A DNA stretch of 64,000 bases from Candidatus Thorarchaeota archaeon. Its GTDB lineage: Archaea > Asgardarchaeota > Thorarchaeia > Thorarchaeales > Thorarchaeaceae. Location: NCBI GenBank assembly GCA_048884965.1, contig JBHLQH010000004.1:115368-179367 (forward strand), read 5' to 3'. Shown here piece after piece: positions 43,831 through 47,998 of this stretch (the first letter of the stretch is position 1; the number at the start of each line of letters is the position of its first letter). The notes beneath the pieces were generated by a model. The model searched no databases. It was given only the letters and a program-made list of their open reading frames with translations, and had not been told where the DNA came from. The position numbers and the translations under genes are program-made.

Positions 43831-44082
43831 ATGTCCGAAGAGAATACCTCAACAGGATACCAACCTAGGACCAAGCCATTCTATACATTCCCGCAGTACG
43901 CGGCAATAACATTCATCCTCTCACCAATTCTGGGATATTTGTTAGCGTACTATGGCTTCATACCATTCGATCCTCTCTATACAGCACTTGCTGCACTGGC
44001 GTTCTGCTTCGTCTATGTGGGTTATCGAGGATACTATTGGAAAATATACAGAAAGGATGAAAGGCAACCATCTGAAGATTGA
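43831..44082 (+). CDS. Small 2-TM membrane protein
   Basis: ATG at 43831 and two hydrophobic helices. Confidence 0.6.
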   Translation: MSEENTSTGYQPRTKPFYTFPQYAAITFILSPILGYLLAYYGFIPFDPLYTALAALAFCFVYVGYRGYYWKIYRKDERQPSED

Positions 44083-44173
44083 TAGCCTTCTAGGAAAGAT
44101 TGTTTCTCGCAGAAACCTGATTGAATTTCAAAAATAATGGAACCTCAGACACTTGGTCCGAGGCTTCTTAGTT

Positions 44174-44416
44174 TCACTTGCCCTTCCATGCTGGCATCTG
44201 AGACATATATTCATCTGTCTTGACTTCTGCTGAGGAACGATCTAGATTCTCACGGGACATCCAGAAATTCACCATGTTCTCACGTACAACATTTCGAGGC
44301 TTGAGGCTGCCATCCTCGGTGCTGCAATACACACAGCTCTTGTTGTCCGTATTCTTTCCACCAAAATCCTCGGGTTTGGTCATTCCCATTCCACACGATA
44401 TGCAATGCTTTGCCAT
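44174..44416 (-). CDS. Zinc-ribbon domain protein (Zn_ribbon_2-like)
   Basis: CISCGM...CVYC...DG...MPAWK pattern and AGGAGGT Shine-Dalgarno. Confidence 0.8.
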   Translation of the reverse strand: MAKHCISCGMGMTKPEDFGGKNTDNKSCVYCSTEDGSLKPRNVVRENMVNFWMSRENLDRSSAEVKTDEYMSQMPAWKGK

Positions 44417-44503
44417 ATGCTTTCACTAAAACCTCCTACAGCGTAATAGGAATATAAAATACTATTCAGTAAGTTCTATAGGCAGTTTTACCAATAGCTC
44501 ATT

Positions 44504-45364
44504 ATGCCTTCTCGTGAAAGAGTAAGAAACCTCATCATGTTGATGCTAGATAGACATCCAATCCATGGATATGAGATTAGACGTCAACTTGTTCCCTTGG
44601 CTGGGGATATAGAAGTCACAACATTGTATCGATGGCTAAGAGAAATGGAAAAGGAAGGGCTTATTGAAAGTAAAGCAAAGAAAGGACCACATGGTCCTGA
44701 AAGAAAAGAATACAGAATGGGATCAAGAGGTGAGCGTCATCTTAGAGAGGTCCTACGTGATTCGATGAGGGTCATTTTACATTTCTATGACGAGTTCAGG
44801 CATTATTCCTTTGCGAAGAGCCTGAGTAACGCTACGAGTTCCGAACACGGTCAAGAATCAATTGAAGGAAGAATCATTGTAGCTATAGTCACGCCCTCTA
44901 TGGCAGACCAAGTCGATACCATGAAGCTCATCACCAATCGAGCTGGTGAGAATAGCATTCATGTTATGGGGGACCCCAAAAACCTAGTAGGTTTGGATAA
45001 GAAATTCATACTCATCGAAGGTAGCCCTTGGGACATTCCTTGCAAGAAGAATCACTACCATGAATACTGGATTCTCGGTATGCCTGCAAGAGAACTCCTC
45101 CCAAGGACTCTAGTCGAGAGCAAGCGCATCTTGGATAATGGCGGAACGGTAAGGATGCATGTTCCATTCGCCTTTTTTGATGAACCTGCTGAGCCAACTC
45201 TAGAATCGTTTCTAAGGCTAACAGCATCACATCTGTTTCCAGAGCTTGGTGTAGTAGAGGGACAAGAGGTCTGCGACCTGTTCGAGAAGATGTTTGAGGA
45301 CTTTGGGATTATCAAGTTTCACCCGGGGCATGTTCAATTCTGGGGCACAAATAGTTCAGAATGA
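44504..45364 (+). CDS. PadR-family regulator with a C-terminal methyltransferase-like domain
   Basis: PIHGYEI...TLYRWLREMEKEGLI...RKEY wHTH. C-terminal ESKRILDNGG resembles a class I MTase. Confidence 0.8.
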   Translation: MPSRERVRNLIMLMLDRHPIHGYEIRRQLVPLAGDIEVTTLYRWLREMEKEGLIESKAKKGPHGPERKEYRMGSRGERHLREVLRDSMRVILHFYDEFRHYSFAKSLSNATSSEHGQESIEGRIIVAIVTPSMADQVDTMKLITNRAGENSIHVMGDPKNLVGLDKKFILIEGSPWDIPCKKNHYHEYWILGMPARELLPRTLVESKRILDNGGTVRMHVPFAFFDEPAEPTLESFLRLTASHLFPELGVVEGQEVCDLFEKMFEDFGIIKFHPGHVQFWGTNSSE

Positions 45365-45395
45365 GCCGAATCAGACAATGGTCAACTAATTTTGT

Positions 45396-45410
45396 ACAAG
45401 AATTTATATA
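45396..45410 (+). promoter_or_regulatory. Archaeal BRE/TATA promoter of tRNA block 1
   Basis: TTTATATA at 45403-45410 after a purine-rich element, about 25 nt before the GGAG leader start. Confidence 0.7.
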
Positions 45411-45427
45411 GTTTCAAATCTCTTGCC

Positions 45428-45508
45428 GGGAGATTACTATGTGTTCAGTACCACAACCCGGTGAACAGATAGCCCAATATTGGGCAGAGCATATGTAGTC
45501 GTTTCTCT
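45428..45508 (+). ncRNA. Structured leader RNA of block 1 (unknown family)
   Basis: GATTAC-T-ATGTGTTC pairs with GAGCATAT-GTAGTC. Internal hairpins TACC/GGTG and GCCCA/TGGGC. GGGAGA/TTTCTC closes the fold. Confidence 0.55.
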
Positions 45509-45515
45509 AATTCTT

Positions 45516-45590
45516 GGGGCTGTGGTGTTAATGGTAACATATCTGCTTGGCTGGTAGACGATTGAGGTTCGATCCCTTACGGCTCCACCA
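45516..45590 (+). tRNA. tRNA-Ala(GGC)
   Basis: GGGGCTG/CGGCTCC with G3:U70, loop TT-GGC-TG, ACCA end. Confidence 0.85.
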
Positions 45591-45602
45591 ATTAGAGTAT
45601 GA

Positions 45603-45681
45603 GGGCATAGTGGCTGGAAGTAGTTAACGCGCTCGACTTGCAATCTTGAGTATGTAGGTGCAAATCCTACCGTGTCCACCA
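45603..45681 (+). tRNA. tRNA-Ala(UGC), degenerate (a Cys GCA reading is possible)
   Basis: G3:U70 and A73, irregular anticodon arm CTCGA-CTTGCAATC-TTGAG, T-loop TGCAAAT. Confidence 0.6.
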
Positions 45682-45689
45682 TCATTTGG

Positions 45690-45764
45690 GGTGAATGTGG
45701 TGAAAAGGTATCATAACAGTCCGTGAAGCTGGAGTTGAGAGTTCGATTCTCTTCATTCACACCA
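45690..45764 (+). tRNA. tRNA-His(GUG)
   Basis: GTGAATG/CATTCAC, encoded G-1, loop CC-GTG-AA, A73-CCA. Confidence 0.82.
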
Positions 45765-45769
45765 CCTAT

Positions 45770-45843
45770 GGGTATGTACGTTAACGGCAGACAATTCGAC
45801 TCCAGATCGTATTGTAGAGGTTCAATTCCTCTCATGCCCACCA
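45770..45843 (+). tRNA. tRNA-Trp(CCA), intronless
   Basis: GGGTATG/CATGCCC, loop CT-CCA-GA, ACCA end. Confidence 0.8.
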
Positions 45844-45844
45844 A

Positions 45845-45922
45845 GGGCCATTAGCATAGTTGCGGAATTGCACTCCTCTCATAAGGGAGGTTGCGTTGGT
45901 TCAACTCCAACATGGCCCACCA
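45845..45922 (+). tRNA. tRNA(CAU), Ile2-like or Met
   Basis: GGGCCAT/ATGGCCC, CTCCT-CTCATAA-GGGAG, ACCA end. Confidence 0.82.
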
Positions 45923-45925
45923 CTT

Positions 45926-46001
45926 GACTAGGTAGCATAATAGCGAGTGCCCTTCCCTTGGACGGAAGTTCATGCAGGTTCAAGTCCTGTCCTAGTCACC
46001 A
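45926..46001 (+). tRNA. tRNA-Pro(UGG)
   Basis: GACTAGG/CCTAGTC, CTTCC-CTTGGAC-GGAAG, ACCA end. Confidence 0.85.
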
Positions 46002-46004
46002 TCT

Positions 46005-46079
46005 GCTCCGTTGGTGTAGTGGAAATCACTCGATCCTTTCGAGGTTGGAACGGGGGTTCAATTCCCCCACGGAGCACCA
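46005..46079 (+). tRNA. tRNA-Glu(UUC)
   Basis: GCTCCGT/ACGGAGC, loop CT-TTC-GA, ACCA end. Confidence 0.9.
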
Positions 46080-46081
46080 CT

Positions 46082-46155
46082 GCGTAGTTGAGGTAAAGGT
46101 AACCCACGGGGCTTCCAACCCTGAGCTGGGAGTTCGAGTCTCCCACTGCGCACCA
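46082..46155 (+). tRNA. tRNA-Gly(UCC)
   Basis: GCGTAGT/ACTGCGC, loop CT-TCC-AA, ACCA end. Confidence 0.9.
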
Positions 46156-46157
46156 AT

Positions 46158-46233
46158 AGCCCTGTAGTGTAGACGGAAAGCACGTTGGACCTTGAATTCG
46201 ACGGTCTCGGTTCGAATCCGGGCGGGGCTACCA
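46158..46233 (+). tRNA. tRNA-Gln(UUG)
   Basis: AGCCCTG/CGGGGCT (A1-U72, archaeal type), loop CC-TTG-AA, ACCA end. Confidence 0.87.
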
Positions 46234-46234
46234 T

Positions 46235-46310
46235 CCCAGAGTGAATCTAAGGGCCAGGACATAGGTCTGTAAAGCCTGTGATGCCAGTTCGAGTCTGGCC
46301 TCTGGGACCA
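46235..46310 (+). tRNA. tRNA-Tyr(GUA)
   Basis: CCCAGAG/CTCTGGG (C1-G72), short variable loop, loop CT-GTA-AA, ACCA end. Confidence 0.85.
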
Positions 46311-46311
46311 T

Positions 46312-46386
46312 AGGAGCTTGGTCAAGCGGTAAGACAACTGTCTAACATACAGTCGATCGGTGGTTCGAATCCACCAGCTCCTACCA
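46312..46386 (+). tRNA. tRNA-Val(AAC)
   Basis: AGGAGCT/AGCTCCT, ACTGT-CTAACAT-ACAGT, perfect T-arm, ACCA end. Confidence 0.87.
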
Positions 46387-46403
46387 AATTATCCAAAATT
46401 CAT

Positions 46404-46418
46404 GTGAAAATTTATATA
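46404..46418 (+). promoter_or_regulatory. Archaeal BRE/TATA promoter of tRNA block 2
   Basis: GTGAAAA-TTTATATA, about 25 nt before the GGAG leader start. Confidence 0.75.
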
Positions 46419-46432
46419 CATTCATGAAAAGC

Positions 46433-46670
46433 ACTGGAGGATTACCAATGTTCAGAGAAAATAGTTTGATAGCGTCGTCAAGGACGACACTCGAACGCTC
46501 CACCCATGATAGTCCGAATAAGGACTAGGGTGAGTACACAATCTCTGGACATCACTGCTTCTTTCAAGTCTGCTGGTCTTCAGGGATAGTGGATTTTCTC
46601 TTTGTTGGAGGGCATGTTGCAAAGGAAGAGGGGGAGACCCTCTCTCGTCCCTTGCACTCATCCGTCCAGT
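46433..46670 (+). ncRNA. About 240-nt multibranch structured RNA (unknown family)
   Basis: Terminal stem ACTGGA-GGAT/ATCC-G-TCCAGT, 11-bp ATGTTCAGAGA/TCTCTGGACAT and several nested hairpins. Confidence 0.7.
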
Positions 46671-46676
46671 AAAGGT

Positions 46677-46753
46677 GGGCCAAGAGCACGGTTCGGTTGT
46701 GCAGGAGGCCTTTAACCTCCTAGACGCGGGTTCGAATCCCGCTTGGCTCTCCA
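46677..46753 (+). tRNA. tRNA-Lys(UUU)
   Basis: GGGCCAA/TTGGCTC, GGAGG-CCTTTAA-CCTCC, G8 and C33, TCCA end. Confidence 0.85.
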
Positions 46754-46771
46754 TGCATAGGTCAAAACAGT

Positions 46772-46908
46772 GGAGTGGTAGCTCAATCTGGCAAGAGCGA
46801 TAGCGTTTCACTGTCATTCATACCGTGATCCCTGAGAAGGGCATCGAGTGACAGTTTGCTTTTGGTTCATACCAAGAGATGCTGGTTCAAATCCAGCCCA
46901 CTCCGCCA
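46772..46908 (+). tRNA. tRNA(CAU, Met-like) with a ~60-nt hairpin insertion after the D-arm
   Basis: GGAGTGG/CCACTCC, canonical D- and T-arms, insert at about 46800-46859, TTTTGG-TTCATA-CCAAGA arm, GCCA end. Confidence 0.7.
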
Positions 46909-46913
46909 ACCTT

Positions 46914-46990
46914 GGCGCTGTAGCCAAACGGATCAAGGCACATCCCTTCGAAGGATGGAGGTCTCGGTTCAATTCCGAGCAGCGCCTCCA
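46914..46990 (+). tRNA. tRNA-Arg(UCG)
   Basis: GGCGCTG/CAGCGCC, CATCC-CTTCGAA-GGATG, TCCA end. Confidence 0.88.
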
Positions 46991-46997
46991 AAACCAT

Positions 46998-47074
46998 GAC
47001 CCTGTAGCTCAGTGGATAGGGCACCACGCTTCTAACGTGGCGGGACGTCGGTTCGAGTCCGACCAGGGTCGCCA
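46998..47074 (+). tRNA. tRNA-Arg(UCU)
   Basis: GACCCTG/CAGGGTC, CCACG-CTTCTAA-CGTGG, GCCA end. Confidence 0.9.
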
Positions 47075-47093
47075 AAAATGAAAGGTGAAAACA

Positions 47094-47330
47094 ATGTCGT
47101 ATGAACATCTCATCGGTACAGAAGCCGAAGCACAGGTAAAGGTGACAATCAGCGGAGCTCATAGTGATACTCCAAATCTCTTCGTTTGGGATAGAACAGA
47201 GCTGATTGCAAAGATTTGGCTCTACCCAGATGGTAGGATCAAATACCGAAGTTTTGTTCCTAAGACGACACAAGAGATTGAGATCCGAGGTCGACATCTG
47301 AAAGTGTATGACCCAAGGGAGAATCTCTAG
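47094..47330 (+). CDS. 78-aa hypothetical protein embedded in the tRNA array
   Basis: AGGTGA Shine-Dalgarno at 47083-47088, ATG at 47094, protein-like beta-rich composition. Confidence 0.7.
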   Translation: MSYEHLIGTEAEAQVKVTISGAHSDTPNLFVWDRTELIAKIWLYPDGRIKYRSFVPKTTQEIEIRGRHLKVYDPRENL

Positions 47331-47331
47331 A

Positions 47332-47456
47332 GCAAGCAGTGATCCTATGAATCATTGCCGAGGATTCACCAAACCTAGTATAGAACTTGCCTAAAGTGCG
47401 CGTGATGAGAAGAAGTCCTATCAGACGAAGCCTTGAACCTCACGCGCCTTTGGCAA
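47332..47456 (+). ncRNA. Structured spacer RNA(s) within block 2
   Basis: GCAGTGAT-CCTATGA-ATCATTGC hairpin, then long stem TTGCC-T-AAAG-T-GCGCGTGA / TCACGCGC-CTTT-GGCAA. Confidence 0.55.
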
Positions 47457-47463
47457 CACAAAT

Positions 47464-47590
47464 ACCGGTGTAGCACAGTTGGTAGTGCGCCTGCCTAGTA
47501 AGCAACGCACCAAAAGAGTGCGCCTGCCTTGTAAGCAGGTGGTCGAGAGTTCGAAGCTCTCCATCGGTTCCATTCCGAACACCGGTACCA
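47464..47590 (+). tRNA. tRNA-Thr with duplicated arms (anticodons AGU and UGU) and two CCA ends
   Basis: ACCGGTG pairs with CATCGGT (TCCA, 47572) or CACCGGT (ACCA, 47590). 21-nt direct repeat at 47484-47504 and 47517-47537. Confidence 0.7.
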
Positions 47591-47595
47591 TTTGA

Positions 47596-47670
47596 GTGGG
47601 GATACGCTAAGGGTAGACGACCAGACTGTTGATCTGGGATGTGTCGGTTCGAATCCGACTCCCTGCTCCA
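47596..47670 (+). tRNA. tRNA-Asn(GUU)
   Basis: GTGGGGA/TCCCTGC, CCAGA-CTGTTGA-TCTGG, TCCA end. Confidence 0.83.
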
Positions 47671-47675
47671 TCTTC

Positions 47676-47763
47676 GGTCGGATGGCTGAGTGGTTTAAGG
47701 CTCTGGTCTTGAAAATCAGCGCAGGTAAAACTGCCAGAGGTTCGAATCCTCTTCCGATCGCCA
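47676..47763 (+). tRNA. tRNA-Ser(UGA)
   Basis: GGTCGGA/TCCGATC, long variable arm GCAG/CTGC, G73-CCA. Confidence 0.92.
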
Positions 47764-47767
47764 TCAT

Positions 47768-47841
47768 GGGACACTAGTGTAATGGTAACATCTAAGCTTG
47801 TCGCGCTTTGGCTGGGGGTTCGATTCCCCCGTGTCTCGCCA
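47768..47841 (+). tRNA. tRNA-Asp(GUC)
   Basis: GGGACAC/GTGTCTC, loop TT-GTC-GC, GCCA end. Confidence 0.87.
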
Positions 47842-47844
47842 TAT

Positions 47845-47932
47845 GTCTGGGTGGCAGAGAGGTATAATGCACTAGTCTGCTAAGCTAGATTCCTTCTCGG
47901 AAACGCAAGTTCAAATCTTGCCCCAGACGCCA
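47845..47932 (+). tRNA. tRNA-Ser(GCU)
   Basis: GTCTGGG/CCCAGAC, loop CT-GCT-AA, variable arm TTCC/GGAA, GCCA end. Confidence 0.9.
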
Positions 47933-47998
47933 TTGACAATGTAATTCTGAATATGGGAAATAGAGATACTAATACACAATGAGAAGAATGGGGGGTGG

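Follow-up and report, generated by a model that had tools for sequence, protein, structure and literature searches.

A tRNA-Thr gene with two internal duplications and two anticodons in a thorarchaeal tRNA array: a candidate newborn intron

Can one tRNA gene hold two anticodons and two 3' ends, and how may such a gene have arisen? The question is raised by a tRNA-Thr locus in the window, which is the whole analysed stretch of 64,000 nucleotides from the Candidatus Thorarchaeota assembly GCA_048884965.1 (contig JBHLQH010000004.1). A preliminary description had named the locus a "double-decker" tRNA-Thr with two D-like arms, two anticodon arms, two T-arms and two CCA ends. All elements listed there are present in the sequence where they had been placed, and the wobble base is indeed the sole difference between the two 21-nt repeats. 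The CCA ends lie at 47570-47572 and 47588-47590. Rfam model RF00005 matches positions 47464-47569 with 54.5 bits, the predicted fold of the 127 nt has an energy of -49.8 kcal/mol (z -4.1), which none of 200 shuffles equalled, and ARAGORN, with introns allowed, calls a Thr(AGU) with a 33-nt intron at 37/38. The gene is real and unlikely to be an artefact of assembly, since it is matched over all 127 nt by the identical Logan contig SRR30758813_1164, from a run that may share its sample with the window genome, and since the metagenome-assembled genome (MAG) GCA_048883545.1 contains both duplications, with two substitutions in the Thr gene. The parts of the gene are listed in Table 1.

Table 1. 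Parts of the tRNA-Thr gene and the array that holds it (positions in the window)
Feature	Position	Strand	Remarks
Head-to-tail CCA-encoding tRNA array holding the Thr gene	45516..47932	+	No counterpart at this site in a related species
tRNA-Thr precursor gene with two internal duplications (33 + 18 nt)	47464..47590	+	127 nt
Acceptor stem, 5' strand	47464..47470	+	Pairs with the proximal (one G.U) or the distal 3' strand (all Watson-Crick)
D-arm with G18G19	47473..47488	+	Same as D-arm of plain Thr(UGU) relatives
Repeat copy 1	47484..47504	+	Anticodon AGU at 47497-47499; UGU in strain GCA_048883545.1
Candidate intron B, 31 nt, D-loop	47485..47515	+	UUGG/CCAA, bulge UAG, 4-bp inner helix; relaxed HBh'/BHL type
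Candidate intron A, 33 nt, 37/38	47501..47533	+	CUAG/CUUG helix, one U.U, two 3-nt bulges
Non-repeated linker, 12 nt	47505..47516	+	CGCA-CCAA complementary to D-loop and D-stem 3' strand, a 3-nt bulge being skipped
Repeat copy 2	47517..47537	+	Anticodon UGU at 47530-47532
T-arm 1	47545..47561	+	5 bp; G60, found in 2 of 261 T-loops
Proximal acceptor 3' strand, U73, CCA	47562..47572	+	Nearest to phage Thr(UGU) relatives
Hairpin sharing sequence with the proximal 3' end	47563..47579	+	Poor imitation of a T-arm; 4 bp, C57
Distal acceptor 3' strand, A73, CCA	47580..47590	+	Copy 2 of an imperfect 13-nt repeat, period 18

The idea of two stacked tRNAs is not borne out by this arrangement; the gene is a single phage-type tRNA-Thr with two duplications. 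As far as sequence comparison can tell, it is best read as one Thr(UGU)-type tRNA that has gained a 33-nt duplication and an 18-nt duplication at its 3' end. A plain relative (L183), whose anticodon is UGU, has an identical D-arm and anticodon arm, and a phage relative (L259) is 80% identical overall and matches the proximal 3' end. Both anticodon arms exist, but the first has only 3 bp when taken alone, and its 5' strand finds a full set of partners only in the 3' strand of copy 2. The second D-like hairpin is likewise present, but it lacks the GG of D-loops and is better read as an intron hairpin. The second T-like hairpin, with its 4 bp, an A.A mismatch and a C57 that occurs in none of the 261 tRNA T-loops counted in the fetched loci, is better read as a product of the duplicated 3' end. 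The origin of the linker was approached by alignment, and the scores for direct duplication (17.5) and for fold-back copying (19) are too near to separate the two. Neutral decay of a copy does not account for it, since 20 of the 21 repeat bases have been retained whereas the loop has given way to a sequence that can pair with the D-loop. A fusion of two tandem Thr genes was rejected, as it would not yield two 3' ends and the copies are near-identical.

Enumerating the endonuclease motifs in the gene gave two credible splice routes. In route A, a stem is built from both copies, copy 1 giving its 5' strand and copy 2 its 3' strand, and the central helix between the 3-nt bulges consists of the two anticodon loops. 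Three of the four central pairs are made (the exception is U33.U, a mismatch also found in the 37/38 helix of the host tRNA-Asp), the outer helix has 7 bp and the inner one 3 bp; removal of the segment would leave a canonical Thr(AGU) of 76 nt (ARAGORN 122.7). In route B, the linker pairs with the D-loop. This motif has the 4-bp helix, the single 3-nt bulge and the inner helix of HBh'/BHL D-loop introns, with no adjacent outer helix, and its removal would leave a canonical Thr(UGU) of 78 nt. The folds of the two routes are mutually exclusive. ARAGORN scores of the predicted spliced products range from 122.7 to 125.9, compared with 98-124 for the array neighbours, and the insert lengths of 31 and 33 nt fit the 29-34 nt typical of host introns. 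The predicted motif probabilities are 7e-4 for A and 6e-3 for B, within the span of about 1e-5 to 0.7 computed for host introns; the host D-loop introns (0.02-0.7) lie above route B, whose motif is placed about two bases downstream of their position. Neither motif belongs to the predicted minimum-energy fold, which is likewise true of most host 37/38 introns. A third motif, at 27/28, also yields Thr(UGU) and was rejected as weak, with two G.U pairs and an inner helix of 1 bp.

How much of this is owed to chance or to the duplication itself has to be considered, since chance readily produces relaxed motifs. Whenever a Thr arm is duplicated, the 37/38 geometry results, and the wobble bases decide whether 2, 3 or 4 central pairs are made; route A is thus largely an automatic consequence of the duplication. 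That there are two possible outcomes is mainly due to the duplicated Thr anticodon arm, which can form a 37/38 motif on its own. Motif B depends on the linker. When the linker was randomised, the motif turned up in 0.7% of the sequences if only strict pairs counted and in 10-13% if G.U pairs were accepted, a result that points modestly to selection for spliceability. The insert would work in the manner of archaeal BHB/HBh' introns.

For the 18-nt duplicate at the 3' end, no splice motif was seen among the motifs listed or in the registers checked by hand, and a BHB intron was therefore rejected for this part. The 13-nt copies are separated by just 5 non-repeated bases; a scar of tRNA-anchored integration was rejected as well, there being no foreign DNA and no integrase between them. 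In secondary-structure models, the distal acceptor strand is predicted to displace the proximal pairing (P 0.98-0.997). In the resulting long form, T-arm 1 becomes a long variable arm and the weak hairpin takes the place of the T-arm (ARAGORN 125.9); this form is favoured in folding, although its T-arm has the defects named above. Trimming at the first CCA is also plausible, as the proximal end is transcribed earlier than the distal one and T-arm 1 is of better quality than the second. If the models hold, distal pairing could also block maturation altogether.

The enzymes that such splicing would need are encoded by the host. Its genome has two EndA paralogues, and the catalytic subunit, which is nearest to that of A. 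pernix, contains the crenarchaeal-specific loop; aligned to the A. pernix structure 3P1Z, EndA alpha shows the loop lysine and the Y/H/K triad. Endonucleases of the (alpha-beta)2 type with this loop cut relaxed D-loop HBh' introns (PMC5829648). Non-canonical D-loop introns require a ligase and an endonuclease of (alpha-beta)2 or epsilon2 type with a specificity loop; as RtcB is present as well, both are available at the gene level, the host endonuclease being of a kind with broad specificity. The host also has its own Thr(UGU) and Thr(CGU); Thr(GGU) is not in the assembly and is expected just beyond the end of contig C25. The proposal that Thr(AGU) is needed to replace a missing host Thr(GGU) was rejected for this reason, the absence being an assembly gap. 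Host Thr genes should thus already cover all four codons, and the Thr gene of the array is a spare.

The array comprises about 21 genes and is flanked by a PadR gene and an ABC substrate-binding gene. Arrays of tRNA genes in bacteria, phages and some archaea normally consist of intron-free single cloverleaves; like them, the present array is head-to-tail, CCA-encoding and horizontally acquired, and its genes are exchanged between relatives. Together with the PadR and Zn-ribbon genes (window about 44064-47991), it is missing from the same site in the related species GCA_016840845.1, and was thus gained or lost as a block. Phage-like genes of the array favour acquisition over loss; no integrase was seen among the open reading frames (ORFs) listed in this interval. 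In the orthologous array of another species (L362), identity reaches 84-87% in Lys, Arg, Asp, Ser(GCU) and the small ORF and falls to 55-63% in Thr, Asn and Ser(UGA); the slot of the Thr gene is taken there by a plain Thr(UGU). At the same slot, G028 has a plain Thr(GGU) and a plain Thr(UGU). These comparisons indicate that array genes were exchanged and that the double layout is not conserved at the slot. Among the findings that would speak against its reading, the preliminary description had named an ordinary Thr gene in relatives, with the gene itself a one-off decayed duplication. This is borne out in part: a plain Thr(UGU) does stand at the syntenic slot of a related species, although it is of separate descent, and a conspecific strain reads UGU in both copies.

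Several other features of this array were recorded. At 46772-46908, a tRNA scaffold has its anticodon arm replaced by a long, strongly folding insert (z -4.7). This scaffold has a module in common with G000 C47:17299-17435, and it may represent a Y-RNA-like mimic; in L362, its position is occupied by Lys(CUU) and Phe(GAA). For the Thr locus itself a Y-RNA/YrlA-like mimic was rejected, because RF00005 is its only match and the insert module of this neighbour is absent. The tRNA-Val at 46312-46386 has A34 (AAC), which is unusual for archaea, and a Val(AAC) call was also obtained in the array of G221; the genome's two PF00383 deaminases look to us like dCMP and cytosine deaminases and not like TadA. 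A degenerate tRNA-like gene at 45604-45678 (23 bits) is probably Cys(GCA). The spacer upstream of the Thr gene (47330-47463) is structured (z -3.3) and mostly missing in the L362 array. An ORF of 78 aa at 47094-47330 has no Pfam match and 13 relatives, at least one of which (G003) is not part of a tRNA array, and one of which has an RNA-ligase-like gene as its neighbour. A second small array (L018:8217-8649, G000 C9) contains four Leu genes and one Phe gene, types that are missing from the window array.

A search of relatives for the same architecture, as the preliminary description had suggested, led to a single case, the conspecific strain GCA_048883545.1, which has UGU in both copies. The two strains differ by 5 SNPs in 10.1 kb, and 2 of these 5 fall within the Thr gene (P about 0.0015); they are the only substitutions in the array region. 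The first is the one that makes both anticodons UGU, by which route A is reduced to 2 of 4 central pairs and a long duplex of the two loops is favoured. The second breaks one pair of the D-stem and looks like decay. Read in the other direction, the change of U34 to A in copy 1 adds a third pair to the two of the 37/38 helix, increases the predicted probability of motif A about 13-fold and of motif B about 6-fold, and weakens the dead-end duplex. The combination of AGU and UGU is consequently not fixed in the species; the UGU/UGU state may be ancestral or a product of gene conversion.

Beyond the species, no second double-Thr gene was detected in 61 and 400 related or Asgard genomes, nor by viral pattern searches or phage BLAST (12 matches of one viral search being left out). 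Metagenome and genome patterns for the layout gave plain tRNAs only, an internal-repeat scan of 489 tRNA-like candidates had this Thr gene as its sole match, and no un-duplicated allele of the exact gene was found; loose two-anticodon patterns performed at chance level or were too unspecific. Genes with several anticodons, of another layout, do occur. The intron-rich arrays L411, L412, L413 and L414 (G226, G222, G221) have anticodon-loop inserts with conserved extra synonymous anticodons: 30 were seen where 11 were expected, in 19 genes that had been chosen after inspection. The inserts contain five anticodons for Arg, UUG and CUG for Gln, UUC and CUC for Glu, and UCC and GCC for Gly; in the Arg genes, the first loop position is without an Arg anticodon. 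The Thr gene of G226 has AGU first and CGU also inside, and an AGU near the end of the Thr insert of G221 was discarded, having no supporting motif and being possibly due to chance. In the same genus, a 98-nt Ile(UAU) gene (L016:1058-1155, minus strand; G006 C338) carries in its long variable region a further loop that resembles Ile(GAU); it adjoins a normal Ile(GAU). Plain Thr(AGU) genes exist in L403 (minus strand) and L404:6106-6179 (G377, G378) and are conserved, with C33 and compensatory changes in the stem; Pro- and Ala-like genes with inserts lie near them. To judge from sequence, genes with more than one anticodon thus turn up repeatedly in Asgard arrays. As a separate observation, an array tRNA-Asp in L017 (G028 C161), located between Ser(UGA) and Ser(GCU) and followed by an HNH-like ORF, has a strict 29-nt BHB intron in its T-loop, which ARAGORN missed.

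Our preferred reading, to which we give tentatively a probability of roughly 0.45, is that of a young intron born by local duplication, which is spliceable by at least one route and whose second anticodon is a by-product. The sequence, the motifs, the enzyme genes, the difference between the strains and the plain gene at the syntenic slot are observed; we infer the transcription, cutting, ligation and charging of the Thr gene, as well as the order of events, as follows. A spare tRNA-Thr(UGU) in a horizontally acquired array would have undergone a recent 33-nt duplication of its D-stem and anticodon region, and would also have gained the 18-nt duplication of the 3' end. The 33-nt insert would then act as a newborn protein-spliced intron: the (alpha-beta)2 endonuclease of the host would cut the relaxed D-loop motif to give Thr-UGU, an alternative cut at the 37/38 bulge-helix-bulge would give Thr-AGU in the window strain, and RtcB would rejoin the halves. 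The 3' duplicate would be trimmed at the first CCA or kept, with T-arm 1 as a long variable arm. The two-anticodon state would be strain-level variation in a dispensable gene and not yet a fixed device.

The alternative that survives best, though we hold it unlikely, is an unprocessed relic, i.e. a redundant gene that was inactivated by its duplications and is now drifting, so that the motifs are coincidental. The excess of SNPs in the gene and the D-stem mismatch of the second strain would be expected of a relic, as would the unusual G60 and C57 and a dominant predicted fold in which no clean motif is formed and the distal 3' strand is the one engaged; moreover, chance often yields relaxed motifs. 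Against drift speak the exon parts, which are undamaged and whose scores rank with the best of the array, the linker, which has not decayed as a neutral copy would, and the match between insert length and host introns.

Selected alternative cis-splicing, the next candidate, appears improbable. One precursor would here be processed to Thr(UGU) by the D-loop cut and to Thr(AGU) by the cut at 37/38, which would widen ACN decoding by an array with one gene per codon box. Splicing to two isoacceptors had been put forward in the preliminary description, and here the proposal is concretely supported: two exclusive motifs lead to products that are both predicted to be canonical, the host enzymes exist, and extra anticodons do occur in Asgard arrays. 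The change of U34 to A, which strengthens both motifs and weakens the dead-end duplex, is in its favour, as are the A34 anticodons of Asgard arrays (Val(AAC) here, Thr(AGU) in G377 and G378 and in first place in G226), the extra synonymous anticodons in introns of G221, G222 and G226, and the Ile UAU/GAU gene of the same genus. The recurring theme of several anticodons thus raises the odds of this explanation, though the layout of those arrays differs and they are known from sequence only. The strain and synteny comparisons weigh on the other side: a conspecific strain has UGU in both copies, and the slots in L362 and G028 hold plain Thr genes. In addition, no homologue with the layout was detected in 400 Asgard genomes, viral contigs or metagenome matches, motif A follows mostly from the duplication, and the four Thr codons should be covered by host genes. 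A doubtful extension, to be graded no higher, sees the gene as a snapshot in which an exon-copying duplication creates a new intron and a new anticodon together, giving two isoacceptors via exclusive EndA sites. A conserved multi-anticodon tRNA of the G221/G222/G226 type was rejected on account of the UGU/UGU strain and the plain Thr genes at the syntenic slots, and a split or tri-split tRNA because the gene is one contiguous unit.

A DNA switch, in which recombination between the 21-nt repeats produces AGU or UGU subpopulations, or a decoy offering extra anticodon loops to a nuclease or synthetase, is very unlikely. The wobble difference between the strains could reflect gene conversion between the repeats, and the array does contain at least one non-decoding tRNA-like RNA (46772-46908), but no collapsed allele exists in three assemblies, the predicted fold buries the anticodon loops against each other, and there is no conservation. 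For these two roles and for alternative folding without cutting, all of which had been suggested at the outset, no positive evidence emerged. An assembly artefact from strain bubbles is the least credible explanation by far, for although one Logan contig (L021) stops two bases before the Thr gene, the exact Logan match and the same layout in a separate MAG contradict it, and neither the linker nor the 5 extra 3' bases copy the repeats.

With regard to known systems, the candidate intron is closest to archaeal BHB/HBh' introns, including those in Asgard D-arms (PMC5829648; bioRxiv 10.64898/2026.10.13.758758), which it resembles in size, in the 37/38 or D-loop site, in the 4-bp helix and 3-nt bulges, and in the enzyme loop; it differs from them in being a near-exact copy of the adjacent exon, with a second anticodon and two exclusive cuts. 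Split and tri-split tRNAs of Nanoarchaeum equitans and Caldivirga maquilingensis (PMC4033280) likewise combine shared pieces with different anticodon pieces to give synonymous tRNAs via the splicing endonuclease. They do so in trans, from separate transcripts, and at the RNA level this has been shown, whereas the Thr gene would act in cis, from one transcript, as predicted only; swapped anticodons are documented only in trans (PMC4033280). The G221/G222/G226 arrays share with the Thr gene the location in a spare array, the extra synonymous anticodons in an anticodon-loop insert and the AGU for Thr, but there the triplets lie within one insert and recur across genomes, while here a whole arm is duplicated, the D-loop offers a second route and the layout lacks conservation. 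The long form, with a Thr anticodon, a long variable arm and A73, would be reminiscent of nev-tRNAs, which combine a class I anticodon with a long variable arm (PMC4033280), except that its arm is the original T-arm, the replacement T-arm is poor and there is no evidence of mis-charging. On alternative tRNA splicing in archaea, nothing relevant was found in the searchable literature, which excludes most subscription papers, and one tRNA gene that is cis-spliced into two isoacceptors was not found described there.

The layout is so far confined to one species, yet a simple rule follows from it: a duplicated anticodon arm with C32 and G35 gives a 37/38 bulge-helix-bulge, whose helix is complete if both wobble bases are purines. 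RNAs of 109 and 127 nt are small enough for a direct in vitro test of cis-splicing into two isoacceptors. How intron DNA first enters tRNA genes is an open question, both generally (PMC4033280) and in Asgard archaea, where a census of tRNA introns leaves the arrival route open and tests inter-gene copying, mobile elements and reverse transcription (bioRxiv 10.64898/2026.10.13.758758); we found no test of local duplication as a source in that study. Snapshots of intron insertion events have been called for (PMC4033280), and the Thr gene, whose insert is identical to its own exon in 20 of 21 positions and already resembles host introns in its length and cut motifs, would be such a snapshot of the birth of an intron.
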